Below, piece by piece: positions 9,511 to 31,262 of a stretch of DNA of 40,771 nt. A model generated the notes under the pieces. That model saw only the letters and a list, made by a program, of their open reading frames with translations. It did not search any database and was not told the DNA's origin. Both the position numbers and the translations under genes were made by a program. Location of the stretch: IMG/VR virus record IMGVR_UViG_3300044998_000126, positions 1 through 40,771 of that record. One strand, 5' to 3'. Source of the stretch: a virus (Duplodnaviria > Caudoviricetes). How positions within the stretch are numbered: the first letter of the stretch is position 1; each line of letters starts with the position of its first letter.

Positions 9511-10479
9511 ATGAGCGCGTTCGACTCGGGAGCATTCGACTCGGGCGCGTTTTTCGCCGCTGCTGCCCCCCCTGCAACGGTGGTTGAAACCGACTTCGCC
9601 ATCGCAGGCGGCGCATCAACTTCGCTATCAGCCCGAGCGATCCGTGATGCAGGGCTCAACGCAGTAGGCACCTCGACGGCGGCCTTTGTGGACGAATCCA
9701 CGTATCCGTTTGTAGGCCCCGAGCGCTTCATTGAAGTCCTGGGCGCTGAAATTCTCCATTTCGAGATCGTCGGGGAAAACAAGGTCCCGACATTCAGTGA
9801 TGGAGACATGACGGCCTCTGGCGCGGCGAGCCTGGTGATCGGTGCGGCTCGCGTGCTGCCAACGCTCCACGCCTCGGCTGGCTCTGGTTCGACCTCTATT
9901 TCAGCCCGATCCATCAGCTTGGTCGGCCTGGCGCCCACCGGCACGTCTTCAGCGTCTTTCGGCGTGGCCCGCGTGCTCCCTTCCTCTGCCGCTTCATCGG
10001 GGTCTTCGGCCTTGAGCCTTGCGGCACGCGCCATTGCCCAGGCCGCAGCCACAGCGGCAGGCTCCAGCACGGTTGCCACACAGACCCAGGCTCGCAAGGA
10101 TGCCGTGGTCAATGGATTGGGTTCGTCCAACGTGTTTGCCCCCACTCAGGTGCTGGCCGCAGCTTCGGTGAACCTGCAAGGCTCATCGAGCGTGGACCTG
10201 CTCGGCCGCCCGGTGGCCCCTGGCGGCCTTGAGGCGCTTGGTGCATCTGCATCGGATCTGAGTGGCTTGGGCCTGGTCGCTCGCATCGATGCTCAGGACA
10301 TGGAGCGCGGCGCGGAATTTCGCGCGATGGAGCGCGGCGCGGAATTTCGCGCGATGGAGCGCGGCGCGGAATTTCGCGCGATGGAGCGCGGCGCGGAATT
10401 TCGCGCGATGGAGCGCGGCGAAGAATTTCGCGCGATGGAGCGCGGCGAAGAGCGCCGTTCGATGGAGGTTACATCATGA
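9511..10479 (+). CDS. Ala/Gly/Ser-rich putative tail fibre shaft protein with C-terminal 9-aa repeats
   Basis: AFDSGAFDSGAF N-terminus, A/S/G-rich body, about six MERGAEFRA-type repeats. Confidence 0.6.
   Translation: MSAFDSGAFDSGAFFAAAAPPATVVETDFAIAGGASTSLSARAIRDAGLNAVGTSTAAFVDESTYPFVGPERFIEVLGAEILHFEIVGENKVPTFSDGDMTASGAASLVIGAARVLPTLHASAGSGSTSISARSISLVGLAPTGTSSASFGVARVLPSSAASSGSSALSLAARAIAQAAATAAGSSTVATQTQARKDAVVNGLGSSNVFAPTQVLAAASVNLQGSSSVDLLGRPVAPGGLEALGASASDLSGLGLVARIDAQDMERGAEFRAMERGAEFRAMERGAEFRAMERGAEFRAMERGEEFRAMERGEERRSMEVTS
10300..10467 (+). repeat. 27-bp in-frame tandem repeat, 6 units (4 identical ATGGAGCGCGGCGCGGAATTTCGCGCG, 2 degenerate) plus a final ATGGAG
   Basis: Units start at 10300, 10327, 10354, 10381, 10408 and 10435; no spacers. 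Confidence 0.95.
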
Positions 10480-10776: not shown

Positions 10777-11745
10777 ATGCCACAACTGTTTACCAACAAC
10801 GCTCGGGCGCTTCTGGTGTCGGGCATCACTGACTCAGCCACGTCGTTGACCGTTGAGGCATCAAAGGCCGACCTATTTCCCACAGCGAATACAGGAACCG
10901 GCCCCGTATCGGCCGCGACCAACTGGTTCAAGATCACGCTCCAGAACGCCGTAGGCGAAGTGGAGATCATCTACGTTCGGACCCGCACGGCAGGCTCCGC
11001 GATCATGTCAAACCTGCTGCGCGGCCAGGAGGGCACGACTGCTCGGAGCTTCAGTGCCGGCACGGTGGTGGGCCTGCGAATCACGGCGGCTGACGTGGAG
11101 GGCTCCATCGCGGCGGCTGCGAACTCGGTGCAGTTGACGGGCAACCAGACCATCGCCGGCACCAAGACGTTCAGCAACCAGATTGTTGCGTCTGGTGGGG
11201 TTCAGGGAGACGTGACTGGCAACGCCGGAACCGTCACCAACGGTGTCTACACCACGGGCGATCAGATCATTGGCGGGAACAAGACGTTTTCTGGTGACGT
11301 TAGGGTCGCTTCCCGCATACTTATGAACAATGAGATTTCGCCCAATACGACTACATTGCAGTGGGGCGATAACACGGGCTGGACGTTCCGCATGATGACG
11401 AACGTATCAGGTACCCCCACCCTCCGATATTCCTTCACCGACACCGGAAACTTCACCGCCACCGGCAACGTCACCGCCTTCTCGGACATCCGCCTCAAGA
11501 CCGACCTGACCAAGATCAGCAACGCGCTGGCGAAGGTCAACCAGCTCAACGGCTACACATACAAGCGTATCGACACGGGCGAGCGCCAGACCGGCGTGGT
11601 GGCTCAGGAAGTCCAGGCTGTGCTGCCCGAAGCCGTACTAGACAACGGCGAGACGCTGGCCGTGGCCTACGGGAACATGGTGGGTCTTTTGATCGAGGCG
11701 GTGAAAGAACTCACCGCTCGCGTGGATAAGCTGGAGGGCCGTTGA
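10777..11745 (+). CDS. Tail fibre protein with C-terminal peptidase S74 intramolecular chaperone
   Basis: LTGNQTIAGTKTF shaft repeats; FSDIRLK...GVVAQEVQAVLPEAV...VAYGNMVGLLIEAVKEL. Confidence 0.88.
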   Translation: MPQLFTNNARALLVSGITDSATSLTVEASKADLFPTANTGTGPVSAATNWFKITLQNAVGEVEIIYVRTRTAGSAIMSNLLRGQEGTTARSFSAGTVVGLRITAADVEGSIAAAANSVQLTGNQTIAGTKTFSNQIVASGGVQGDVTGNAGTVTNGVYTTGDQIIGGNKTFSGDVRVASRILMNNEISPNTTTLQWGDNTGWTFRMMTNVSGTPTLRYSFTDTGNFTATGNVTAFSDIRLKTDLTKISNALAKVNQLNGYTYKRIDTGERQTGVVAQEVQAVLPEAVLDNGETLAVAYGNMVGLLIEAVKELTARVDKLEGR

Positions 11746-15703: not shown

Positions 15704-16123
15704 ATGTCGAACTACGCGCTTGAATTTGATCTGGACGCGGTTCTTCCTTTTGTGAAGAGTCGGATTCCAGGCTTTGCTCGCGGCGAAGACATGCGCTGCA
15801 TCGGACTGCGGCGCCACGGTGAATTGATCGCAGGCGTTGTTTATGAGGGCTTCAACGGTCGAAACATGATGATTCATGTGGCCGCTGAACCCGGCCGGCG
15901 CTGGCTGGTTCGTGAATACCTGCGCGCGTGCTTCGTGTACCCGTTCGAGATCTGCGGAGTGGAGCGCTTGACGGGCTACGTCAACGAGAGCAACACCGAG
16001 GCGCGACGGTTCGATGAGCATTTGGGGTTCAAGGAAGAAGCCCGGCTAAAAGGCGCGGCGCCCGATGGGGGCGACGTGATTCTCTATGTCATGTGGAAAT
16101 CGGAGTGCCGTTATGTGGCTTAA
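15704..16123 (+). CDS. GNAT-family acetyltransferase-like protein
   Basis: CFVYPFEICGVERLTGYVNESNTEARRFDEHLGFKEEARL motif; typical location before podovirus ejection genes. Start at ATG 15704 is inferred. Confidence 0.85.
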   Translation: MSNYALEFDLDAVLPFVKSRIPGFARGEDMRCIGLRRHGELIAGVVYEGFNGRNMMIHVAAEPGRRWLVREYLRACFVYPFEICGVERLTGYVNESNTEARRFDEHLGFKEEARLKGAAPDGGDVILYVMWKSECRYVA

Positions 16124-17213
16124 ATCCTTCTTTGACCCGCTGTATCGCTGGCTGACCGACTACATGGGGGCCTGCGGGTTCATCCTGTATGGAGGCGGGA
16201 AAGGCAGCAGCGCTCCCGCACCCGATCCGCGACTGGTCGAGGCGCAAATCAAGAGCCTGGGCATCCAGGACAGCATGATCGAAGAGATCATGGCCGTGAC
16301 GCGGGAAATGCAGCCGATCCAGAAGGAGCAGATGCAATTCGGCCTGGATTCTGCGCGGACGGCATTTGATCAGTCCCAAGCGGATCGCACTTATTCGCTG
16401 GAGCGCCGCGGTGTTCTCACTGGGTTGCAGGATCAGCTGGTCGCTGACGCGCGGAGCTTCAACGAGCAGGGCAGGGGAGAGCAGTTGGCCGGTCGCGCCA
16501 TTGCCGATGTGCAGACCCAGATGGATAACACGCGCGCGGGCACGGCGCGTCAGATGGCTCGCATGGGCATCAACCCCATGAGCGGGAACTTTGCAGCCAC
16601 GAACAACAGCATGGACGTAGCCACGGCATCGGCCAAGGCCGCGGCCGGCAACAACGCGCGTGAGGCCGCTCGCATGGAAGGCTACTCGCTGACCGATCGC
16701 GCAACGAATGCCCTGGCGGGCTATCCAGCCATGGGCTTGCAGACCACGGGTAATGCAGCGCAGTTTGCCGCTGGCGGCCTGAATCTGGCAAACCATGGCG
16801 CAGCCGGCATGATGGCTGGGAGCAAAAGCGCGGGTTCAATGGCAGGTCAGATGGGCAGCAATGCCGCCAATATGTGGGGCCAGCAAGCGAACTTCCACGC
16901 CAACATGCAGCAGCAAGACCAGACGGGCCAGATTCTTGGCGGCCTGGGTGGCTTTGTCGCGGGCTTGGCCAAGACCGGCATCTTTTCTTCGGATCGTCGC
17001 CTGAAAAAGGACATCGCTTTGATTGGCCAGGACGAGGCGACCCTGCTCAATCTGTACGAGTTCAGCTACGTGGACGGAGGCGGCACCCGATATGTGGGCG
17101 TCATGGCCGACGAGGTACAAGAGCGCTTCCCCGAGGCGGTTTATGAAATGCCTGACGGCTTCATGGCCGTCAACTACGCCCTGCTGGGCATTGAATTGAA
17201 AGAGGTGGCTTGA
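16113..17213 (+). CDS. DNA ejection (internal virion) protein with C-terminal peptidase S74-like domain
   Basis: GGAG RBS before ATG 16113; GGGKGSSAPAPDP motif; Q/A/G/M-rich helical body; SSDRRLK...GVMADEV...PEAV...VNY. Confidence 0.75.
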   Translation: MWLKSFFDPLYRWLTDYMGACGFILYGGGKGSSAPAPDPRLVEAQIKSLGIQDSMIEEIMAVTREMQPIQKEQMQFGLDSARTAFDQSQADRTYSLERRGVLTGLQDQLVADARSFNEQGRGEQLAGRAIADVQTQMDNTRAGTARQMARMGINPMSGNFAATNNSMDVATASAKAAAGNNAREAARMEGYSLTDRATNALAGYPAMGLQTTGNAAQFAAGGLNLANHGAAGMMAGSKSAGSMAGQMGSNAANMWGQQANFHANMQQQDQTGQILGGLGGFVAGLAKTGIFSSDRRLKKDIALIGQDEATLLNLYEFSYVDGGGTRYVGVMADEVQERFPEAVYEMPDGFMAVNYALLGIELKEVA

Positions 17214-18869: not shown

Positions 18870-21800
18870 ATGTCAAAACCTTGGGAACGCGACTGGTCCA
18901 CACCTTCTGAATCTTCTGCCGGTCCAAAGCCATGGGAAAGAACCTGGGCGGCTGAAGCGCAGCCTGTCAGTCGCGGTGCAAGGGCTATTGCCTCTGATCT
19001 GGCTAAAGGCTTGGGTGGCGCAGTGGTTTCCGCTGTTGGCGCCGTACCGACTGCCGTAGGCCGAGCGGTACAAGAAGGCGGGGAAACACTTTTTGGGCTC
19101 AGTATGGATGAGGCCCGTCGCCTGGCTGAAGCCGATGGCACCCCTGAGAAGGCGCTGGAGTGGCACGAGCGCGCCAATCGACTCAACCCAATTTCTGCTG
19201 CTGGCCGGGCCATTGAATCAGGTGGGCAGTGGATAGGCCGTCAAGGCGATCGCTTGCGCGATTCACGTTCTGATGAGGCCAAGAAACGGGCTCGTCAATC
19301 CACCCCAGACGGCGATCTCATGCGTCCATCTACTTGGACGATGGGCGAGAACCCAACCGTCGAGGGTGTTGCTCAAGTCACTGCTGATGTGATTGGCAGC
19401 ATGGCTCCACCGATTGCCGCTGCGATTGCAACGCGTGGCCGCTCTGCCACGACGCAGATGCGCGTGGGTGGCGCAACAGTCGCCGGCCAGATTGGCGGCG
19501 CCGCCATGGAAGAGGCAGGCGACTACCTGAGCCAGTTCACCGACGATCAGCTACGACAAGCATCACCCGTGTTTCGTGATCTTGAGGCCAAGGGGTACAG
19601 CGCAGCCGATGCGCGAACCATCCTGAGCCGCGACGCAGAAAACCGAGCCGCCACGTTTGCTGCGCCTGTGGGTTATGTGGGTGGCCAGGCGACCGCCGCG
19701 ATCCTTGGCAAGCCTGGCGAACGGTTGGCCGGTGGTTTTGGAAGCATGGCCGCAAAGGCCGGCATATTGGGTGCTTTGGGTGCAACTGAAGAGGGTTTGC
19801 AGGAGGTTGCTGAAGGCGTGGCCACACGCGCCGGCATCAACAACGCCACGGGCATGGACCGCTCTTTAACCGAAGGCACCTTTGGCGAGTTCATCTTGGG
19901 CGCCAAGGGCGGCGGTGTCACGGGCGCAGGAAAGGGTGTGCTCGAAGGATTGCGTGCACGGCAAAGCGCTGATGGTGCCATCACTGATGATGGGACCAGC
20001 CCGACTGTCACACCGGAAGGCGGAAACATGCCGCCCGCCGCTGCTGCGCCAGAGGCGCCGCTTGTCACATCCCAATCCAGTGATCCGACTTCGCGCTTGG
20101 CGGAGTTGGATATCCTGGCCGAGCAGCGCGACCTGACGCCGGCCGAGCGCCAGGAAACGATTGACCTGCTGACCGCCCTGCAAGATGAGCAAGACGCAAC
20201 GCAAGGAACCGAAGGAGACGCCCCGCAAGCCCCGGCAGTGGAAGCGCCAAAGGCAACGGGAGGCGATGGAGCCGCCGCTGCTGGAGTACCCGCAGAACCT
20301 GCCGCCCCTAATGTGGAAGCCGCTGGGCTAGAGCCCGAGCGTGAGGCGGCCAAGCGCACCAATTTCTGGACCTGGATCGGCACCAAGGGCTACAAGCCCG
20401 CCGATGTCAAGGTCGGCACACCGCTGCACGCCGAGCTGAAGGCGGAGTTTGACGCGCTGCGCAACGGCCAACCGCTGCCGTCCAAGGCGCAGCCGGCCGC
20501 GCCGTCTGTCGATCCGGTGGCCGCCGTCACGGCATGGCGGGAGCGGTTCCCGGCCAAGCCGCCGTCCGGCATGAGTGAGGAGCAATTGCACCAGTTTGCC
20601 GGCGAGCGCCGCAACGCGGATGCGCAACTGGTGCAGCAACTGGAGCCGCAGGCCAATGGGCTGGTGCTGCCCACGGCCACCGGGTTCGGTGGCATCACGC
20701 AAGACCCGAGCGAGGCGGGCAAGTGGCGCATCACCCGCTTTGATGCGGCCATGGAGCCGGTCGGCCATGAGGTCTACAACAGCGCCCGCGAGGCGATCGA
20801 GAACCTGCTGCCGCGCTTCCAGGCGCCGCGGGCCAAGCAGGCAGAGCCCATCCTGCCGCCGCTGCAACCGCAGCCGAGCGTGGACTTGCAAAACCGTGAC
20901 CGCTCGCGCGCTGCGTCCGTGGTGCAGATGAGCGACATCGCCCGCAACCCCGATTACATGCGCCTGGGGCCAAGCCGCACTCCGGACAGCGGGGCGCCGA
21001 TGGTGTTTGCCGTGGGCGACGACGTGAGCCGCATCCCGGCGGAGAACTTCGGCCGCCAGGACGTGGCCGTGATGAGCGACGGCCAGCGTGTGCCGTTCCG
21101 CTACGCCGTGGTGGATGCCACGAAGGTCAACCCGTCGAACTTTGCCGATGGCCGCCAGAACCCGGAGTTCAGCAGCACGACGCCGGGCACGATCAAGGCG
21201 CTGAACAACGGCCGCACCGCAGGTGTTCGTGCCGCGCATGAGATGGGCACGGCCGGCGAGTACGTGGCCGGCATGCAAGCCGACGAGGCGATGCACGGCA
21301 TCCCGGCCGACGTGATCGCGCGCACGCCGAATCCGATGCTGGTGCGCGTCTACTCCGATGCGGCCAACACCGCCAACATGGCCGCCAAGAGCCAGGGCCA
21401 GGGCCTGGGCATGAGCCCGGCCGAGTTGGCCCGCCAGGACGCGCCGCTGATGGATTCGAGCGTGCTGGGCGTGTACGAGCCGGGCGAGATCACCAGCGCG
21501 GCCAACCGCGACTTCGTGCGTGCGTTCATTGGCAAGCTGCAAGCCGCCGGCCAGGACGTGGCCGGGATGATGACTGGCGACGGGCAACTGTCGCAGGACG
21601 GCCGCAAGCGCATCCAGGCCGCGCTGATGCAGGCCGCCTACGGCGATGTTGATCTGGTGGAGGAGATGTTTGACTCCACCGACACCGACATCAAAGCCAT
21701 CGGCGAGGCGCTGAAGGCCGTCGCCGGGCAGTGGGCCAACATGCGCGACTCGGCCCGACTGGGTGTGATCAACCCGCAGGTGGACGTGACCGAGAACCTG

Positions 21801-24800
21801 GTGCAGGCGGTGAACCTGATCCGCAAGGCCCGGCGCGAGCGCATGAGCCTCAAGGATCTGGTGGCGCAGCCCGACCTGATGACGGGCGAGACGCCGCACG
21901 CGCTGACCGTGGGCATACTGCGCGTGTTCTACGATGGCCAGAACTTCACGCGCGCGGTCGGCCGCGACAAAGTGGTGGCCAAGCTGGAGGAATACATCCG
22001 AGCGGCCATGGCCACCTCGGCAGACGCCGGTCTGTTTGGCGGCGAGCCTGTGTCGCCGGCCGACATTTTGGCTACCATCACCGGACAAGGAGCACTGGAT
22101 GCGCAAACTCAACCCGAAGAAGGCCGAGGAGAACCCGCTGGCAGCGGCGATTCTGGGGGCCGTGTTGGTGAAGTACGGCCGGCTGGAGAACAGCCAGACG
22201 CAGATCGAGGCGGGCGAGCGTCTGCTGAAGATCGCGGAGCAGAACCAGGACAAGATGCCGCGCCTGAAGCCCGACAGCAAGATGGCCAAGGCGATCAAGG
22301 CGGCCAAGGAGGCGATGGCGCCGGCCAAGGCGGTACCGCCGGAGGACAGCAAGGAAGCGCTGAAGGCCAAGCCGACAGACTGACCCTGCCTGTCAAAAGC
22401 CCGCTGGACGCCGACGCCAAGAAGCCCGCGCGAAAGGCAAAGGGCGAAGGTGTAAAGGCAAAGCCGGTAGAGGCCGCCAGCGACCAGCCGGCCATCGACC
22501 GCGAGAAGCTGGACAAGGATTTCCGCACCTTCCCGACACAGATCCTGAACAACCTGCTGGAGCGCGGCGAGGCCGCCAAGCTCTACAAGGCCGCGGGCGT
22601 CAAGGGCGCCAGCGCGTTTGGCGACTTGGCCATGGATGACAAGGCCGCCGCCTACGTCAAGTTCGTGCAGCAGGGCGGAAAGCCGGTCGAGAACCTGCCC
22701 AAGGACTACAACGCCTGGGTGAAGAGCGAAGAGCGCGCCGCCGAGGTGCGCCGGCTGCAATCCGACCGCGTGGTGCGCCAGGAAAACGGCAAGCCCTTCA
22801 AGAGCAAGACCAGCGCGCAGCAGTACCAGGAGCGTTACGACCTGACCGGCACGCATGAGGTGGTGGCGGTCGATGGCGGGTTTGAGCTGCGCCAGCTTTC
22901 GCCGGCCGCGCAGGCTGAGCTGAAGCGCAAGGCCGAGGGCCGCGAGAGCTACACCGAGGCGCAGGCTGCCGTGGCCGAGGAAATGGGCATCGGTCAGACG
23001 CCGGATGGCGAGTGGGACGCCACCGACGAGCAGTTTGACGAGATGGAGCGCCGCGTGCAGGCAAGGATGCGCGGCGAGCCTGCCGAACCCCTGCTGACCA
23101 ACCCCACCCGTGAGGACGTGCTGGCCCAGCAGGAGCGCGCCGAAAACGCGCAGGCCGCCGACGAGCGCGAGCAGATCCGCCGCGAGAGCGAAGCGGGCGC
23201 CGGCACCTTCAGCCTGGAGATGCAGGACGGGCGGCAGGACACGACGGCGGACCTGTTCCGCCAGACGGCACCCAAGCCGACCCGCCCGGCGGTCTCTCCC
23301 AACACCATCTTTACCGAGGACGCCGCGGCCAAGGCGCGTGAGCGCCTGCGCAAGAAGCTGTGGCAACTCAACAGCGGCCTCGACCCGGAAATGATGATGG
23401 ACGGCATCACGCTGGCCGGCTATCACATCGAGAAGGGCGCCCGCACCTTCGCCGCCTACGCCCGCGCGATGCTGGCGGACCTGGGCGACGGCGTGCGCCC
23501 CTATTTGAAATCGTGGTACATGGGTGTCAAATACGACCCACGGGCCGCGGGCTTTGACGGCATGGACGACGCCGCCACGGTGGAGTCTGCCGATCTTGAC
23601 GCGCTGACGGCGCAGGAGAATGACGATGTACCAGGTTCCGATGTCCGTGTGGAACGCGATCGCCAAGAGCCAGCCCCTGGGCCAGCCGTGGGCGACGCTG
23701 TTCCGGATGACGCCGGAGGATCTGCCGAGGGGAATCGCGCAGATGGTGGACGCACCCGCCGAGGCGGCCGGCGCGGACAACCGGACGGTGCTGGCGTATC
23801 GACTGGTGGCGCCGTTGCTGGTGGAGAACGAAGCGATCTCGGCCTACCTGGAGGAGACCCGGCAGCCGAACATGCGCGCGTGTCTACCGGAGCTGACTTC
23901 GGTGAACGAGGCAGTGACATTGGCGTCGATGGAGTATCGACTGACCCCATCCCAGCAACGCAAGTTGACGCAGTTGCTACGCGCGGCGATGAGCGGGCAG
24001 AGCGCGAGCAGGCCCAGCGACGCGCTGACCGCATCCCGGTAATTGCCGGCAACGCGGAGAACATCCGCCAGACGCTGCCGTATCTGCTGGCAGGCCAGCA
24101 GGAGGATGTGGCCAAGGCCGAAGCCCGGTTTGCGCAACCGGACGGCTACGGGATGCTGTTCACCAACGGCACCGGCACCGGCAAGACCTTCACCGGCCTC
24201 GGCATCGTCAAGCGCTTCGAGCGCCAGGGCAAGGGCAATGTCCTGATCGTCGTCCCCGACGACAAGATTGCATCCGACTGGATCGAGTCCGGCCGCGCGC
24301 TGGGCCTGACGATCACGGCGCTGCGCGACACCAAGGACGCCGGCCGCGGCATCACGGTGACGACTTACGCCAACCTGGGCGAAAACGACGCGCTGGTGTC
24401 GCGCCAATGGGATCTGTTCGTAGCTGACGAAGCGCACGAGCTGATGAAGTCGGCCGATGGCTATGTGACGAAAGGCCTGGCAGCGCTGCGCGCGCTGTCG
24501 CTGCACCCGGATGGCGCCCACACCCGCTACGAAATGCTCAACCGGCCGGACATTCAGAAGGCGGCCGCCCTGGACGAGCAGATCAAGGTCAACCTGCGCA
24601 TGATGTCCCGCGACGACACCATGGATGTCATGGTGGAGTCGCTGCGCCGGGAGAACCAGCGCATGGAGGCCGAGCTGGCCGCCCTGTACGCCAAGCTGGA
24701 CGCCGCCCGTACCGCGGTGCGCGAGGACGTGAAATCGCGCCAGGGCGCCAGCCGCCCCCGTGCGGTATTCCTGTCGGCCACGCCGTTCGCCTACGAGTTC

Positions 24801-27800
24801 AACATCGACTGGGCCAACGGCTATCTGTTTGATTACAACGAAGGCCAGTCGGACGAGAGCCTGGAGTTCCGCGGCTACAACCAAGGCAGCAACCGCGACC
24901 GCTTCTTCATGACCCACTTCGGGTACACGATGCGGTACAACAAGCTGACTAAGCCGGCCCCGTCCAAGGTGGACACCGGCCTGATGCAGCGGCAGTTCAA
25001 TTCCTGGTTGAAGTCGCGCGGGGTGCTGTCGGCCCGGATGCTGGACGTGCCGGCCGACTACGACCGCAAGTTTGTGCTGGTGGATTCTGCCATCGGCAAC
25101 CGCATTGACGAGGCGCTGTCCTGGCTTGACGAGCAGCGCCTGGCCGACAAGACCGGCGGTTTCAGGCTGCTGCGCGACACCATCGACGAGAAGTTTGACT
25201 ACCTGAGCCGACGCTACCTGCTGGAGGCGATCAAGGCGACGGAATCGGTGCCGATTGTGCGCGAGCACCTGCGCCTGGGCCGCAAGGTCGTTGTGTTCCA
25301 CGACTACAAGAAGGGCGGCGGTTTCAACCCGTTCGACATCAAGCCGTCCGACGCGCCGGCGCTCGATGGCGAGCGCCAATCCGATCAGCAGGCGTTCAAT
25401 GACACGCTGGCCACCTTCCGCGAGAAGTTCAAGGATCTGGTGGACGCCCCGCTGGGGCGGCTGCCGAGCCCGATCGAGGTGTTCAAGCGCGAGTTCCCTG
25501 ACGTTCTGCTGGTCAACGGCGACGAGAAGAAGGCCGACCTGCTGGCGCGCTACAAGAAGTTCCAGGACGACGCGAGCGGCCCGCAGGTGATGCTGGTGCA
25601 GTCGGCCAAGAACAAGGGATGGAGCGGCCACGACACGACGGGCAAGCATCAGCGCGTGCTCATCAACCTGGGCATGCCGACCGCGCCGACCCTGGCCATC
25701 CAGCAGGAGGGACGGATCTACCGCACGGGCCAGGTCAGCAACGCCATCATCCGCTACCTGAACACAGGCACCAACTGGGAGCGCTGGGCGTTTGCCACGA
25801 CGATCGCCAGCCGGGCCAGCACAGCCGAGAACCTGGCCATGGGCGAGCAGGCGCGCGCCCTGAAGGATGCCTTCGTCGCTGTGTTTGAAGAATCGGACGC
25901 CTACCCGCCGGGGCACGAGGGCGAGGGCACAGGCGGCAAGGCGCGCGACGCTGCGGCCAACAACGCCTTGACGGCCTACGACCGCGCCAAGTACTTCTAT
26001 TGGGCAACCCAGAAGAAGAACAGCAAGACCAAGGCGCAGGAGGGCACGGACTACTTTGCCACGCCGGAGCCGGTCGGCCTGAAGATGGCCGAGTGGCTGG
26101 CCCTGCGTGGCGGCGAAGAGGCACTGGAGCCCAGCGCCGGCCATGGCGCGATTGCCCGCTGGCTGCCGGATACGGTCAAGCGCACCGCCATCGAGCCGTC
26201 CGGCGCGCTGCGCGCCCGCCTGGCGATGGTGATGAGCCCGAAGGATGACCGCATCATCGACGGCGTGTTTGAGGACCACCACGTCAGCAACAAGTACGAC
26301 GGGATCGTGATGAACCCGCCGTTCGGGGTGGGCGGCAAGACGGCCATCGAGCACTTGGCCAAGGCGGCTACGCACCTGCGCGACGGAGGCCGCATCGTCG
26401 CGCTGATCCCGACCGGACCGGCCGCAGACAAGCGTTACGAGCAGTGGATGTACGGCACCGAGCAGCGTCCGGTCAAGCCGCTGCTGGAGCATCCGACCCT
26501 GGGCTCGATCTACGCCGGCGACACGGTTCGCACCCGCGCCGCCTGGGCGCCAGAGGGTCGCGTGGTGCGTGCGCGTGATGGCGCGCTGATGGTAAAGGTC
26601 GAGGGGCAGCCCGGAGAGAGCATGGTGTCCCTGGGCGCCGTGACCGAGGTGCAGCCGACAGGCGTGCGAACCCGCGAGGTCCGTCCGGCCGAAGGCATTT
26701 ACACCGTGGGCGAGATCCGACTGCCGCAGGTGACGTTTGAGCGTGCCGGCACAAAGGTGGCCACGCGCATCGTGATCCTGGAGAAACAGTCCGACCGCGA
26801 GCGCGCGCCGAATGCCCGCGCGCCGATCGACCTGACCGATGTCACAGACATTCGGGAGCTATTCGACCGCCTGGAGAGGCTGGAAATGCCCGGCCGCCGC
26901 ATGACGGCCGCGCAAGAGCAGGCCGCAGAGGCCGAGCGTGCCGAGCAGGAGCGCGCCAGGCAGCGCGAGGAAGCCCGCGCCAAAAAGGCCGAGCCGGGTG
27001 CGCCGAAGGCGGCCAACCCCGATGCCGTTGGCACCGTGGACCGGGCTGGCCATGAAATCATCGAGCACGTCACCCAGAAGGGCAAGACGATCCGCGGCAT
27101 CGTGCGCACGGATCTTTTGAAGGAAGAGGCGCAGAAGATCGACCCGTACACCTTCCGCAAGTATGGCGGCTGGTTCATCCGCGAGGTGTATCTCAAGTCT
27201 GACGACGCCCCGATGGCCAGCCGCGGCCGCGCCGGCGGCATGACGGAATCCGCCGTGCGCCAGGTGGCCGACACCATCACGTCACGCTGGACCAAGGCGC
27301 CGACCGTGGTGGTGGTGCCGAACATGCAGGACATGCGCGTGCCGGAGGCCGCGCGCCAGGAGGACGCCCGCCAGCGCGCCGCCGGCGCGACGGGGGTGCC
27401 GCGCGCCTTCTACGACCGCGGCACCGTGTACCTGGTGGCCGATGGTCTGAAGAGCGTCACCGACGCCGCCGAAGCGCTGTTTCACGAGGCGCTGGGCCAC
27501 TACGGGCTGCGCGCCGTGTTCGGCTCCGCGCTGGACGGCATCCTGGACCAGATCGCCGTGGCACGGCCGGACCTGATGCGACCGAAGGCCAAGGAGTACG
27601 GCAAAGATCTGAAGGTGCTGAAGCAGCGCCGCGAGGTGGCCGAGGAAGTCCTGGCCGAAATGGCGCAGACGAAGCCGAACCTGGGATTCGTCAAGCGCGC
27701 GATCGCAGCCATCCGCACCTGGTTGCGCCAGAACGTGCCGGCCCTGAAGGACATGGCGCTGACGGATGCCGAGATCATCAACAACTTCATCCTGCCCGCG

Positions 27801-30800
27801 CGCGGCTGGGTGGAGCGTGGTGAGCGGGCGATGCGGCCGGGTGGGAAGGTGGCGATGAGTCGTGATGGCGCCGACCAGCCGCAAGACCAGACCCAGACCG
27901 AAGCCTTCCGCCGCTGGTTTGGTGACAGCAAGGTGGTGGATGCCGATGGCAACCCGCTGGTGGTGTATCACGGGACGCGGGCTGACATCACTACGTTTGA
28001 CCCTGAACGCGCTGGCTCAAAGACTGATTCTGGTGCGTGGGGCAGAGGAATCTACTTCGCAGCCGATCCCGAATACGCTGGCGCTTATGCGGGGCGGACT
28101 GAGGGATCGAACATCGTTCCGGCGTACATCTCCTTGCAAAACCCGCTTGTCGTGGACGCGCGAGAACGCACGGCGGCTATTCGTGGGATCGGGCTTGAGG
28201 TGCCTCGCGGCGACCCGACGCCCGCGTGGTCGCAGCAATTTGCCAATGCGGTAGCACAACGCGGTTACGATGGGGTGATCGTGACATTGGACGGGGCTCC
28301 GGCGGAGATCGTCGCCTTCCGCCCCGAGCAGATCAAGAGCGCCACCGGCAACCGCGGCACGTTCGATCCCGAGAACCCGGACATCCGCTTTAGCCGCTCC
28401 ACCCTGGGCAACACCCCGCCCACGCCGCCGCAGAACCCAAACGCCTGGCAGAAGCTGAAAGCCAAGGCGCTGGAGCTGACCAACCCGGACGCGATCGAGA
28501 GCCTGATCTACGAGTACCAGGACAAGAACATTGACCTGAAGCGGCTGCGCGATCACATCAAGGAGCTGGGCGGCACGATCACGGACCTGAACGACGCCTA
28601 CCTGGGCGAAGAGCTGTACCACAAGCGCCTGGCCAAGCGGACGCAGGACTTTTTGAGCGAAGAGCTCAAGCCGCTGCTGGCCGACATGCGCGCCCGCGGG
28701 GTGGACATGCCGACGCTGGAGCGCTATCTGCACGCCCGCCATGCGCCCGAGGCCAACCGCGTGCTGGCCGAGCGCAACCCGAATGCCCAGATGATCGAGG
28801 CCGGCAAGGCCAAGGCGCTGGCCGAGGTGAAGGCGCTGGAGGTGCAACTGCAACGCGCCCGCGCGCAGGGCACGGCCACCAAGGCGGTCGAGCAGGCGCT
28901 GGAGCAGGCGCTGGCCGAACGCGACCGCTGGACCGGGGCGCAGGCCTTCAAGGGCACCGAGGCCGAGCGCCTGAGCCTGTCGGGCATGAGCGACGCCGAG
29001 GCGGCCGCTTTCATGGGCGGTCTGCCGGCCGGCCAGAAGGTGCACCTGGAGGCGCTGGCTGCCAGGGTGGATGCGATGCAGGCCAAGACGCTGGAGGTGC
29101 TGGAGAAATATGGCCTGATGGACAAGGCCACGCTGGACGCCTGGCGCAGCACGTACCAGTTCTATGTGCCGCTGCACCGTGACGAAGCCCATCCGGATGC
29201 CGTGAGCCACCCGATCGGGCAGGGCTTCAGCACCAAGGGCGATGCGTCGAAACGCCGCACCGGCTCCAACGAGAAGGTGACGAACATCCTGGCGCACATT
29301 GCCATGCAGCGCGAGGCGGCGCTCACCCGCGGTGAAAAGAACCGCGTGGCCAAGAAGCTGTACCTGATGGCCGCGCAGAACCCGGACCCGGAGATCTGGT
29401 CGGTGGACAAGCCGCCGATGATGAAAACCGTGGACCGGGAGACGGGCTTTGTACGCACGACGGTGGACCCGACGTACCGCAACAAGCCGAACGTGGTGAT
29501 GGTGCGCATCGGCGGCAAGGACCACGCGATCACGTTCAACGAGCGCAACCCGAAGGCGGTGCGGATGGCGCAGTCGATCAAGGGCGCGGACGTGGGCGAC
29601 CTGAACGCCTTTGAGTCGATCATGGGCAAGGCCACCCGCTGGCTGGCCAGCGTCAACACCCAATACAACCCGATCTTCGGCATCATCAACTTCGCCCGTG
29701 ACGTGCAGGCCGCCATCCTGCAACTGAGCACGACACCGCTGAAGGGCCAGGAGCGCGCCGTGGCCGCCTATGTGCCGGCGGCGCTCAAGGGCATCTATGC
29801 CGAGGTGCGCAGCCGCCGCAAGGGGCAGTCTCGCGGCACGGGGCAGTGGGCCAAGCTGTGGGAGGACATGCAGGACGAAGGCGGCACCACCGGATACCGC
29901 GAGCTGTTCATCACGCCGGATGAGCGGGTGAAGGCGCTGACCAAGGAGCTCAACGCGCTGGAGCGCGGCAAGGTATCCGAGGCCGCGCATGCCGTGGTGG
30001 ACTGGCTGTCCGACTACAACGAGACGATGGAGAACGCCGTGCGCCTGGCCGCCTACAAGGTGGCGCTGGACCAGGGCATGAGCAAGGAGCGCGCCGCCAG
30101 CCTGGCCAAGAATCTGACGGTCAACTTCAACCGCCGCGGCCGGCAGACGGCCCGACTGGGTGCGTATTACGCCTTCCTGAATGCCGCGATCCAGGGCACG
30201 ACCCGCATGGTGGAGACGCTGCGCGGGCCGCTGGGCCGCAAGATCATGCTGGGGGGTGTTATGCTGGGCGCCGTGAATGCCTTGATCGGCATGGCCATGA
30301 TGGGCGGCGACGACGAAGAGGACAACTGGGAGAAGATCCCCGACTTTGTGAAGGAGCGCAGCCTCATCGTCCCGCTGGGGCGCGAGGACTACCTGGCCAT
30401 CCCCATGCCGCTTGGCTATCACGTGTTCCCGAACCTGGGCCGCAAGGCGGTGGAGATGATGATGCACGACGATCCGACCAAGGGCGTCGGCAGCCACATT
30501 GCGGAGATGCTGCGCATCACGCTGGATGCATTCAACCCGCTGGGCGGATCGGAGAACCTGGCGCAGATGGTGACGCCGACGCCGTTCGACCCGGCCGTCG
30601 CGCTGATGATGAACCGCGACTGGACGGGCAAGCCGATCTACCGCGAGGACAACAGCAACCTGGACCCAACGCCGGGCCACCAGCGCACCAAGGACACCGC
30701 GAGCGCCTTCAGCAAGGCCGTGTCCGAGGCGCTGAACAAGATCACGGGCGGCACGGACTACCAACCGGGCGCCGTGAGCGTGACGCCGGACCAGATCGAC

Positions 30801-31262
30801 TACGTGATCGGGCAGATCACCGGCGGCCTGGGCCGCGAGATCCTGAAACTGGAGAACTCGATCACGGCCCCGCTGACCGGAGACGAGTTGCCGGCCTACA
30901 AGATCCCCCTGGTGGGCCGTCTATACGGCAACACCCGCGGGCCGGCCAACAACGCGGAGCTGTTCTACGAGCACGTGCGCGAGCTCAACCAGATCGAGAA
31001 CGAGATCCGCGGCCGCGCCCGAGACGGCGGCGATGTGGCGGGCTACATGGCCGAGGAACCGCTGTCCGCTCTGGTTGGCATGGGCAACGCGGCGGAGAAC
31101 CAGATCCGCAAGCTGCGACAGTACCGCGCGGAGGTGGTGCGCCGCGCCGAACCGGGCTACCAGGATGAGGTCAAGCGCATCAACGAGCAGATGGGCGAGG
31201 TGATGAAGCTGCTCAACCAGGAGGTGCGGCGGGCGAAGATGGAGGCGGCGGCTGCCCAGTAA
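18870..31262 (+). CDS. Giant polyvalent DarB-like internal virion protein (~4130 aa): ddrB-like ParB domain, SF2 helicase, N6-adenine methyltransferase, zincin-like peptidase, ART-PolyVal, LPD38-like C-terminus
   Basis: LQNRDRSR/NNGRT (~20880-21450); GTGTGKT (24168), DEAH (24426), SAT, QQEGRIYR; EPSAGHG and NPPF (26313); HEALGH (27483); YHGT...GIYFA...GYDGVI...EIVAF (~27890-28400); WEKIPDFVKERSLIVP...IPMPLG. Confidence 0.9.
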   Translation: MSKPWERDWSTPSESSAGPKPWERTWAAEAQPVSRGARAIASDLAKGLGGAVVSAVGAVPTAVGRAVQEGGETLFGLSMDEARRLAEADGTPEKALEWHERANRLNPISAAGRAIESGGQWIGRQGDRLRDSRSDEAKKRARQSTPDGDLMRPSTWTMGENPTVEGVAQVTADVIGSMAPPIAAAIATRGRSATTQMRVGGATVAGQIGGAAMEEAGDYLSQFTDDQLRQASPVFRDLEAKGYSAADARTILSRDAENRAATFAAPVGYVGGQATAAILGKPGERLAGGFGSMAAKAGILGALGATEEGLQEVAEGVATRAGINNATGMDRSLTEGTFGEFILGAKGGGVTGAGKGVLEGLRARQSADGAITDDGTSPTVTPEGGNMPPAAAAPEAPLVTSQSSDPTSRLAELDILAEQRDLTPAERQETIDLLTALQDEQDATQGTEGDAPQAPAVEAPKATGGDGAAAAGVPAEPAAPNVEAAGLEPEREAAKRTNFWTWIGTKGYKPADVKVGTPLHAELKAEFDALRNGQPLPSKAQPAAPSVDPVAAVTAWRERFPAKPPSGMSEEQLHQFAGERRNADAQLVQQLEPQANGLVLPTATGFGGITQDPSEAGKWRITRFDAAMEPVGHEVYNSAREAIENLLPRFQAPRAKQAEPILPPLQPQPSVDLQNRDRSRAASVVQMSDIARNPDYMRLGPSRTPDSGAPMVFAVGDDVSRIPAENFGRQDVAVMSDGQRVPFRYAVVDATKVNPSNFADGRQNPEFSSTTPGTIKALNNGRTAGVRAAHEMGTAGEYVAGMQADEAMHGIPADVIARTPNPMLVRVYSDAANTANMAAKSQGQGLGMSPAELARQDAPLMDSSVLGVYEPGEITSAANRDFVRAFIGKLQAAGQDVAGMMTGDGQLSQDGRKRIQAALMQAAYGDVDLVEEMFDSTDTDIKAIGEALKAVAGQWANMRDSARLGVINPQVDVTENLVQAVNLIRKARRERMSLKDLVAQPDLMTGETPHALTVGILRVFYDGQNFTRAVGRDKVVAKLEEYIRAAMATSADAGLFGGEPVSPADILATITGQGALDAQTQPEEGRGEPAGSGDSGGRVGEVRPAGEQPDADRGGRASAEDRGAEPGQDAAPEARQQDGQGDQGGQGGDGAGQGGTAGGQQGSAEGQADRLTLPVKSPLDADAKKPARKAKGEGVKAKPVEAASDQPAIDREKLDKDFRTFPTQILNNLLERGEAAKLYKAAGVKGASAFGDLAMDDKAAAYVKFVQQGGKPVENLPKDYNAWVKSEERAAEVRRLQSDRVVRQENGKPFKSKTSAQQYQERYDLTGTHEVVAVDGGFELRQLSPAAQAELKRKAEGRESYTEAQAAVAEEMGIGQTPDGEWDATDEQFDEMERRVQARMRGEPAEPLLTNPTREDVLAQQERAENAQAADEREQIRRESEAGAGTFSLEMQDGRQDTTADLFRQTAPKPTRPAVSPNTIFTEDAAAKARERLRKKLWQLNSGLDPEMMMDGITLAGYHIEKGARTFAAYARAMLADLGDGVRPYLKSWYMGVKYDPRAAGFDGMDDAATVESADLDALTAQENDDVPGSDVRVERDRQEPAPGPAVGDAVPDDAGGSAEGNRADGGRTRRGGRRGQPDGAGVSTGGAVAGGERSDLGLPGGDPAAEHARVSTGADFGERGSDIGVDGVSTDPIPATQVDAVATRGDERAEREQAQRRADRIPVIAGNAENIRQTLPYLLAGQQEDVAKAEARFAQPDGYGMLFTNGTGTGKTFTGLGIVKRFERQGKGNVLIVVPDDKIASDWIESGRALGLTITALRDTKDAGRGITVTTYANLGENDALVSRQWDLFVADEAHELMKSADGYVTKGLAALRALSLHPDGAHTRYEMLNRPDIQKAAALDEQIKVNLRMMSRDDTMDVMVESLRRENQRMEAELAALYAKLDAARTAVREDVKSRQGASRPRAVFLSATPFAYEFNIDWANGYLFDYNEGQSDESLEFRGYNQGSNRDRFFMTHFGYTMRYNKLTKPAPSKVDTGLMQRQFNSWLKSRGVLSARMLDVPADYDRKFVLVDSAIGNRIDEALSWLDEQRLADKTGGFRLLRDTIDEKFDYLSRRYLLEAIKATESVPIVREHLRLGRKVVVFHDYKKGGGFNPFDIKPSDAPALDGERQSDQQAFNDTLATFREKFKDLVDAPLGRLPSPIEVFKREFPDVLLVNGDEKKADLLARYKKFQDDASGPQVMLVQSAKNKGWSGHDTTGKHQRVLINLGMPTAPTLAIQQEGRIYRTGQVSNAIIRYLNTGTNWERWAFATTIASRASTAENLAMGEQARALKDAFVAVFEESDAYPPGHEGEGTGGKARDAAANNALTAYDRAKYFYWATQKKNSKTKAQEGTDYFATPEPVGLKMAEWLALRGGEEALEPSAGHGAIARWLPDTVKRTAIEPSGALRARLAMVMSPKDDRIIDGVFEDHHVSNKYDGIVMNPPFGVGGKTAIEHLAKAATHLRDGGRIVALIPTGPAADKRYEQWMYGTEQRPVKPLLEHPTLGSIYAGDTVRTRAAWAPEGRVVRARDGALMVKVEGQPGESMVSLGAVTEVQPTGVRTREVRPAEGIYTVGEIRLPQVTFERAGTKVATRIVILEKQSDRERAPNARAPIDLTDVTDIRELFDRLERLEMPGRRMTAAQEQAAEAERAEQERARQREEARAKKAEPGAPKAANPDAVGTVDRAGHEIIEHVTQKGKTIRGIVRTDLLKEEAQKIDPYTFRKYGGWFIREVYLKSDDAPMASRGRAGGMTESAVRQVADTITSRWTKAPTVVVVPNMQDMRVPEAARQEDARQRAAGATGVPRAFYDRGTVYLVADGLKSVTDAAEALFHEALGHYGLRAVFGSALDGILDQIAVARPDLMRPKAKEYGKDLKVLKQRREVAEEVLAEMAQTKPNLGFVKRAIAAIRTWLRQNVPALKDMALTDAEIINNFILPARGWVERGERAMRPGGKVAMSRDGADQPQDQTQTEAFRRWFGDSKVVDADGNPLVVYHGTRADITTFDPERAGSKTDSGAWGRGIYFAADPEYAGAYAGRTEGSNIVPAYISLQNPLVVDARERTAAIRGIGLEVPRGDPTPAWSQQFANAVAQRGYDGVIVTLDGAPAEIVAFRPEQIKSATGNRGTFDPENPDIRFSRSTLGNTPPTPPQNPNAWQKLKAKALELTNPDAIESLIYEYQDKNIDLKRLRDHIKELGGTITDLNDAYLGEELYHKRLAKRTQDFLSEELKPLLADMRARGVDMPTLERYLHARHAPEANRVLAERNPNAQMIEAGKAKALAEVKALEVQLQRARAQGTATKAVEQALEQALAERDRWTGAQAFKGTEAERLSLSGMSDAEAAAFMGGLPAGQKVHLEALAARVDAMQAKTLEVLEKYGLMDKATLDAWRSTYQFYVPLHRDEAHPDAVSHPIGQGFSTKGDASKRRTGSNEKVTNILAHIAMQREAALTRGEKNRVAKKLYLMAAQNPDPEIWSVDKPPMMKTVDRETGFVRTTVDPTYRNKPNVVMVRIGGKDHAITFNERNPKAVRMAQSIKGADVGDLNAFESIMGKATRWLASVNTQYNPIFGIINFARDVQAAILQLSTTPLKGQERAVAAYVPAALKGIYAEVRSRRKGQSRGTGQWAKLWEDMQDEGGTTGYRELFITPDERVKALTKELNALERGKVSEAAHAVVDWLSDYNETMENAVRLAAYKVALDQGMSKERAASLAKNLTVNFNRRGRQTARLGAYYAFLNAAIQGTTRMVETLRGPLGRKIMLGGVMLGAVNALIGMAMMGGDDEEDNWEKIPDFVKERSLIVPLGREDYLAIPMPLGYHVFPNLGRKAVEMMMHDDPTKGVGSHIAEMLRITLDAFNPLGGSENLAQMVTPTPFDPAVALMMNRDWTGKPIYREDNSNLDPTPGHQRTKDTASAFSKAVSEALNKITGGTDYQPGAVSVTPDQIDYVIGQITGGLGREILKLENSITAPLTGDELPAYKIPLVGRLYGNTRGPANNAELFYEHVRELNQIENEIRGRARDGGDVAGYMAEEPLSALVGMGNAAENQIRKLRQYRAEVVRRAEPGYQDEVKRINEQMGEVMKLLNQEVRRAKMEAAAAQ
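20185..20331 (+). CDS. Possible nested 48-aa ORF in the +1 frame of the giant gene
   Basis: MSKTQRKEPK...LLEYPQNLPPLMWKPLG*. The +1 codons end mostly in G/C while host-frame codons become A/T-ending. No clear RBS. Confidence 0.35.
   Translation: MSKTQRKEPKETPRKPRQWKRQRQREAMEPPLLEYPQNLPPLMWKPLG
22099..22383 (+). CDS. Nested 94-aa protein overprinted in the +1 frame of the giant gene
   Basis: AAGGAG RBS 22087-22092 with 6-nt spacing; protein-like helical sequence; host frame becomes G/E/Q/D low complexity over this span. Confidence 0.75.
   Translation: MRKLNPKKAEENPLAAAILGAVLVKYGRLENSQTQIEAGERLLKIAEQNQDKMPRLKPDSKMAKAIKAAKEAMAPAKAVPPEDSKEALKAKPTD
23626..24042 (+). CDS. Nested 138-aa protein overprinted in the +1 frame of the giant gene
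   Basis: AGGAG RBS 23614-23618 with 7-nt spacing to ATG 23626; globular composition and GC3-rich codons; host frame G/R/D-rich over the same span. Confidence 0.8.
   Translation: MYQVPMSVWNAIAKSQPLGQPWATLFRMTPEDLPRGIAQMVDAPAEAAGADNRTVLAYRLVAPLLVENEAISAYLEETRQPNMRACLPELTSVNEAVTLASMEYRLTPSQQRKLTQLLRAAMSGQSASRPSDALTASR

Follow-up and report, generated by a model that had tools for sequence, protein, structure and literature searches.

Does a 138-codon reading frame that lies entirely within another gene, in a shifted frame, encode a protein of its own, and if so, what would that protein do for the enzyme it directly precedes? The question is raised by the window, the 40,771-nucleotide stretch analysed here, which is a whole 40.8-kb virus record with genes for a P22-like portal, capsid, tail and lysis (Pfam). 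Nested genes that are both long and conserved are rare among prokaryotes and their viruses, and they go unseen in standard gene calling. The features on which the argument rests are as follows.

18870..31262, plus strand: host giant gene of 4,130 codons for a polyvalent protein, closing the virion gene block (open reading frame and domain scan)
20862..21353, plus strand: ddrB-like ParB domain of the giant protein (PF18763, E 9.7e-17)
22099..22383, plus strand: ORF B, a second nested +1-frame ORF, 94 aa, Shine-Dalgarno (SD) AAGGAG, right after the ParB module
23614..23618, plus strand: Shine-Dalgarno AGGAG of ORF C, with a 7-nt spacer to the ATG; conserved among relatives
23616..23954, plus strand: linker of the host frame across ORF C, predicted to be disordered (pLDDT <50, model residues 108-220)
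23626..24042, plus strand: ORF C, nested +1-frame gene, 138 aa, with a predicted all-helical core at about residues 5-125 and a variable tail
24075..25958 (end approximate), plus strand: SF2 helicase-like module of the giant protein (ResIII E 1.8e-10; Helicase_C_4 E 1e-4, under cut-off)
26016..26903 (bounds approximate), plus strand: adenine methyltransferase-like module with motifs EPSAGHG and NPPF (MTS E 0.001, under cut-off)
27939..28364, plus strand: ART-PolyVal domain of the giant protein (PF18760, E 1.4e-29)
30321..30914, plus strand: LPD38 domain of the giant protein (PF18857, E 3.1e-50)

The host gene carries PF18763, PF18760, PF18857 and PF04851, all above cut-off, in one polypeptide, as a polyvalent protein does. 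With ddrB-ParB, SF2 helicase, adenine methylase, ART-PolyVal and LPD38 domains in a giant of the virion block, it belongs to the polyvalent proteins with a helicase-methylase dyad, which include P1 DarB and the 'DarB-like' giants of Parlo, Skulduggery and ZX1. The original prediction called the enzyme DarB-like, which is a loose term here: in the window the helicase precedes the methylase and no LPD36 match is present, whereas P1 DarB sensu stricto has an LPD36-methylase followed by a C-terminal SF2 helicase (PMC5512222, main text). The giant protein is cysteine-free (0 in about 4,130 residues), and the median across 45 giant proteins longer than 2,500 aa is 0 cysteines per 1,000 residues. Gene position and the lack of cysteine are only suggestive of a giant that would be packaged in the virion and shield injected DNA from restriction. 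Close relatives of the window were found in assemblies of Comamonadaceae and other Burkholderiales, and a betaproteobacterial host is therefore likely. Elsewhere in the window, the genes at 10777-11745 and 16086-17213 each encode Peptidase_S74 chaperone domains, and a Gp38-like adhesin gene follows the former.

The AGGAG-N7-ATG at 23626 and the 138-aa sequence originally quoted were re-read in the window, and all match. ORF C occupies the +1 frame relative to the giant ORF (18870-31262) and ends with TAA at 24040-24042; the helicase motif LPYLLAGQQED, expected about 30 nt beyond the stop, begins at 24075, 32 nt past it, and the Walker A motif GTGTGKT of the helicase module lies 183 codons downstream of the ORF C start. 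An alternative upstream ATG at 23620 is only 1 nt from the SD, and the profile start of all relatives is 23626. The +1 frame of the giant contains 130 stops in 4,130 codons and two stop-free runs of at least 138 codons, namely ORF C and the run with ORF B. Length alone would not prove a gene; it is conservation that makes ORF C a real one. A public contig, possibly the source of the window DNA, is identical to the window across 21500-26500; an assembly error confined to the window file is thus not the source of the frames.

Conservation is broad. Homologues account for 119 of 178 candidates, a profile search gave 202 matches out of 7,991, and 363 cluster representatives (50% clustering) were related at E<=0.001, most of them 120-140 aa long and aligned from residue 1. 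With tblastn, ORF C matched 8 of 50,697 phage records at 30-40% identity; these represent six distinct phages, of Pseudomonas, Serratia, Klebsiella, Vibrio (two) and Ruegeria, and one Comamonas plasmid record was also matched. In six deposited cultured-phage records the giant CDS is the sole feature over the match, the nested gene being unannotated. The embedded spanin is annotated in the Parlo record. Of the first 45 loci, counted with duplicates, 43 place the match within a long ORF, in its +1 frame, and two have no host ORF. Start signals are conserved as well. Among 62 helicase-bearing hosts, a set from which 12 duplicate loci had been removed and most of which were found through ORF C, the start is ATG in 60 and GTG in two, a stop is present in all, and an SD-like motif precedes 53 of the 62 starts, compared with 88 of 1,003 (8.8%) other +1-frame ATGs. 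The family is mildly acidic (median net charge -4; the window copy is at 0).

Selection acts on the nested frame. Across 38 distinct copies, mean identity over the same bases is 45% in the ORF C frame and 29% in the host frame, and variability by codon position of the ORF C frame is 0.45, 0.36 and 0.50, the third position being highest. From 63 pairs with at least 70% DNA identity, which are not independent of one another, dN/dS comes to 0.29 for the ORF C frame and 1.86 for the host frame. The host frame must nevertheless stay open through ORF C, and has no stop there in any of the 38 distinct copies, whereas synonymous choice alone would leave it open in about 18% per copy.

The AlphaFold2 model of ORF C is a compact eight-helix fold with a loose tail (pLDDT 86.3, pTM 0.81), so the confidence check proposed for it favours a folded protein. 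In the host frame, the stretch predicted to be disordered covers most of ORF C and sits between two folded domains of the model. Because selection favours the ORF C frame and the host frame is modelled as disordered there, the low-complexity linker is presumably a shadow of ORF C; a feature of a giant virion protein would thus be explained as the by-product of a second gene. Together, the homologues, the selection on the nested frame and the confident predicted fold bear out the original claim of a real folded protein rather than a shadow ORF. Judged from sequence, ORF C is a real, widely conserved nested gene, previously unannotated, of a new protein family.

No significant match to ORF C was found in Pfam, PHROGs, NCBIfam, PADLOC or PDB sequences, and the ESM Atlas gave no usable match. 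Foldseek returned best E values of 0.83 (PDB) and 0.94 (BFVD), and VIA-align a best Z of 4.7 (rmsd 4.0, 72 aligned). The modelled family is without a matched fold, and absence of a match is no proof of a new one. The matches to Pfam TPR_LAA1_C (E 1.4e-4, under cut-off, 2 of 119 members), to PrmC_N (3 of 119 members, best E 0.01; HemK E 0.64) and, in one member, to TALE repeats were treated as chance because no structure search backs them; the best PHROG link (2 of 119 members, E 0.0045) assigned no family. TnpV (PF14198) was set aside too, as it was matched by 0 of 119 members at E<=0.1 among the best 25 of 55 families and the window protein had no match at E<=10. A TnpV-looking ORF at a remnant locus (L075) gave a profile match probability of 0.1% with ORF C, and its own TnpV label is without Pfam support. 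A remote kinship of ORF C and TnpV may exist.

Embedded phage genes and polyvalent giants are already known; new are the nested gene ORF C and its protein family, the ORF-B-type nested ORF after ParB and the repeated helicase-free copies. One parallel is Rz1, a whole phage gene embedded in a shifted frame within Rz, the gene of its probable partner. ORF C likewise is a whole frame-shifted gene inside the gene of a probable partner; it differs in encoding a soluble protein of 120-140 aa, helical in the model, within an enzyme gene of 9-16 kb and in its attachment to a single module. Neither a spanin nor a lipoprotein family appears among the best 25 of 55 Pfam families matched by the 119 members. 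A second parallel is ShiLan, where a hidden out-of-frame HNH endonuclease with its own start lies in phage methylase genes and the host frame is read through as a loop, according to PMC11855218. The two are alike in lying out of frame, each with its own start, within a phage methylase gene, but the ShiLan element is a patchy homing element, whereas ORF C is in every helicase-bearing relative examined and is predicted to be all-helical. A hidden homing endonuclease of this type was rejected for ORF C on the all-helical model, the lack of an HNH family among those best 25 and its presence in 15 of 15 loci found through the helicase. We found no account of ORF C in the literature covered, chiefly open-access papers; in the main text of PMC5512222 the words 'overlap' and 'disorder' do not occur, and 'nested' refers to nothing but a hairpin.

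What, then, does ORF C go with? All 62 helicase-bearing hosts carry it, starting 172-201 codons before Walker A (183 codons in 30 hosts) and ending 42-67 codons before it, with ORF C lengths of 120-140. With the helicase alone as query, all 15 viral loci found have ORF C, 12 of them new, and this query matches the same 8 of 50,697 phage records as ORF C does. The giants differ in whether they have ParB, MPTase, ART and the upstream domain, while ORF C tracks the helicase-methylase, and no ORF C was seen in a giant gene without this helicase except as broken remnants. Such tight linkage is also expected because the two are physically nested. ORF C distances correlate with those of the helicase at r 0.81, other module parts correlate among themselves at r 0.80-0.81, and no partner is singled out.

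Complex prediction of ORF C with an 815-residue helicase-methylase stretch gave a score of 0.60, the best of three controls giving 0.00. The runs scored 0.60, 0.60 and 0.00, with contacts agreeing in at least 0%, a partner pLDDT of at least 75 and no interface given. Of 157 solved pairs, 116 attained the mark used for such scores, as did 2 of 215 mismatched ones; among the pairs attaining it, 18 solved ones and both mismatches lay at or below 0.60. The proposal that ORF C is a partner of the helicase-methyltransferase thus draws strong support from genomic linkage and weak support from the multimer prediction, one run of which fell to the level of the controls.

The original prediction also looked for stand-alone homologues next to helicase genes, but every relative seen is either nested or alone without a helicase. 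Among 151 genomes related to one that carries a lone copy (G001), four match ORF C: G020 alone has the full helicase-methylase, G029 matches only part of the methylase, and G001 and G002 have no helicase match. ORF C without helicase therefore occurs in 3 of 151 genomes, one of which is the centre of the search and any of which may be incomplete, and helicase without ORF C in none. Of 25 metagenome loci, 15 have a nested ORF C followed by a helicase that looks intact; in the other 10 (7 distinct) the helicase is absent or broken. Lone copies, all of which were found with ORF C as query, are sporadic (1 of 401, 2 of 101 and 1 of 101 genomes). Similarity of L039, L040, L062, L063, L071 (near a contig end) and L072 to phage loci at the DNA level is confined to about -30 to +380 around the ORF C start, and the tree needs at least five origins for nine lone or remnant rows.

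One lone lineage is under purifying selection. Where the host frame of lone copies has 2-6 stops, the ORF C frame is still open. A supported clade made up only of lone copies, in two chromosomal settings, unites L039, L040 and L063; its dN/dS is 0.13 and its synonymous divergence 0.70, versus a maximum of 0.63 in 34 nested pairs of like protein distance, as expected if selection on ORF C continued once it had left the host frame. L039 and L040 have no SD, and their dN/dS is 0.23 versus 0.02 for the neighbouring gene. Both copies are intact and lie directly behind an NAD-dependent epimerase gene, as does, at the same chromosomal site, the internally deleted copy of L089. In G152 (L091:3862-12273), an integrase-borne island carries a complete type III mod-res followed by a lone ORF C, and also a 503-aa gene. 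Truncated remnants of the ORF C locus are found in L075, L083-L085 and L088. At L075:33-3548 a PDC-S14-like defence gene (PADLOC E 4e-58) is inserted in a broken giant gene, with the TnpV-looking ORF upstream; ORF C is intact there and the helicase is cut after about 25 residues.

The reading that we tentatively prefer, and hold to fall just short of being probable, is that ORF C is a cognate inhibitor or chaperone of the helicase-methylase. ORF C would be made by internal translation initiation on the same late mRNA as the giant, and the small helical protein would bind the neighbouring helicase-methylase module, holding it inactive or packaging-ready in the virion-producing cell. By analogy with P1 DarB and from the gene position, the giant would be packaged and ejected with the DNA, while ORF C would stay behind or be stripped off, so that the enzyme works only on arrival in the next cell. 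Once freed of ORF C it would modify incoming DNA, as the main text of PMC5512222 proposes for the dyad; the anti-restriction role of the giant is itself an analogy. Nesting would make ORF C and the helicase-methylase one cassette that survives domain shuffling of giant genes, and a lone ORF C would let the bacteria that keep it block the enzyme as it comes in. ORF C is thus a candidate for the control of a phage DNA translocase-methylase between synthesis and injection, which is an open point for DarB-like proteins. If it does restrain the helicase-methylase, giant phage genes carry hidden built-in regulators; and if lone copies indeed block the injected enzyme, they would be a new defence against phages that the phage itself supplied.

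A bolder version, which we regard as possible but rather doubtful, sees the giants as two-layer operons in which each injected module has a +1-frame cognate inhibitor (ORF C for the helicase-methylase, ORF B for ParB) and is shuffled with it as one cassette. Bacteria would repeatedly capture ORF C alone, disarming the injected anti-restriction enzyme as a counter-counter-defence.

ORF C could instead be a positive accessory subunit, either a packaging factor or a co-ejected activator, as Ulx might be regarded for DarB. Ulx helps DarB incorporation in P1. The P1 Dar helpers Ulx, Hdf and DdrA are small proteins that go with a giant virion-borne methylase-helicase, as proposed for ORF C, but they are separate genes in P1 and no homology to ORF C was detected (Pfam, PHROGs). 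Ulx is a P1 Dar virion protein that is incorporated last, according to PMC12810830. An accessory subunit would account equally for the linkage and the weak complex score, and the conservation of ORF C equals that of the enzyme module; it leaves unexplained the lone copies under purifying selection without a helicase and finds no sequence link of ORF C to any PHROG family. We consider it unlikely, and favour an inhibitor over an activator because a bacterium would have a use for a lone inhibitor but none for a lone activator.

Alternatively, ORF C may have a target of its own (a host protein, a host restriction enzyme or a superinfecting phage), the disordered linker serving only as coding space. 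This would fit the persistence of lone copies without helicase, the one that adjoins a type III R-M system it could regulate, and the unrelated HNH-like ORF in the same frame of another locus (L023), by which linkers are seen to accept passengers. A passenger, however, need not keep a distance of 172-201 codons across phages of Pseudomonas, Serratia, Klebsiella, Vibrio, Ruegeria and Comamonadaceae. Nor would its absence from giants without this helicase, broken remnants aside, or a complex score above the controls be expected, and we judge such a target unlikely as well.

That ORF C is joined to the giant polypeptide or the helicase by ribosomal frameshifting, with no separate protein made, would suit its near-constant distance to Walker A, with its end 42-67 codons before it. 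This is very improbable given that its own SD and ATG are conserved, that its stop is always present yet variably placed, that a canonical -1 slippery heptamer occurs in the last 30 codons of ORF C in 0 of 62 loci, and that the host frame is kept stop-free through ORF C beyond what synonymous choice gives. An untranslated shadow of the host frame, for which the lack of a sigma-70 promoter-like site in a scan of 23000-24300 might speak, is barely credible against the dN/dS contrast, the conserved start signals, the confident fold predicted over a disordered host segment and a nested frame that stays open in lone copies despite host-frame stops.

ORF C is not the only reading frame of its kind in these giants. 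As a parallel that speaks for the reading we prefer, in all 14 ParB-bearing hosts a +1 ORF of 50-105 aa begins at the end of the ParB module, a count made without a chance control. Homology to ORF B is recognisable in L002, L015, L017 and L018, and faint or absent in other ParB-bearing loci; among cultured phages ORF B has no match. The other +1 ORFs of the window (20575/20656, 25255 and 27862/27940) were rejected, having a shadow-like composition rich in R, P, S, C and W or no relatives. In L025 and L028-L031, at about 9842-10000, a 52-aa nested ORF ends with a TAA directly before the ORF C ATG, and this tandem may be translationally coupled. Further small +1-frame ORFs with an SD and protein-like composition were seen at L005:9952, L006:10336, L049:7416 and L052:7335, in L010-L012, L020, L021 and L046, at position 13307 of L014 and L022, and at L002:14924 and L015:14138. 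They make up apparent small families at other giant-gene linkers. A nested +1-frame ORF of 151 aa at L023:8240 (plus strand), unrelated to ORF C, reads like an HNH endonuclease and recalls the ShiLan elements. In L082, a putative intein-like insertion begins right at the GTGTGK of the helicase Walker A.
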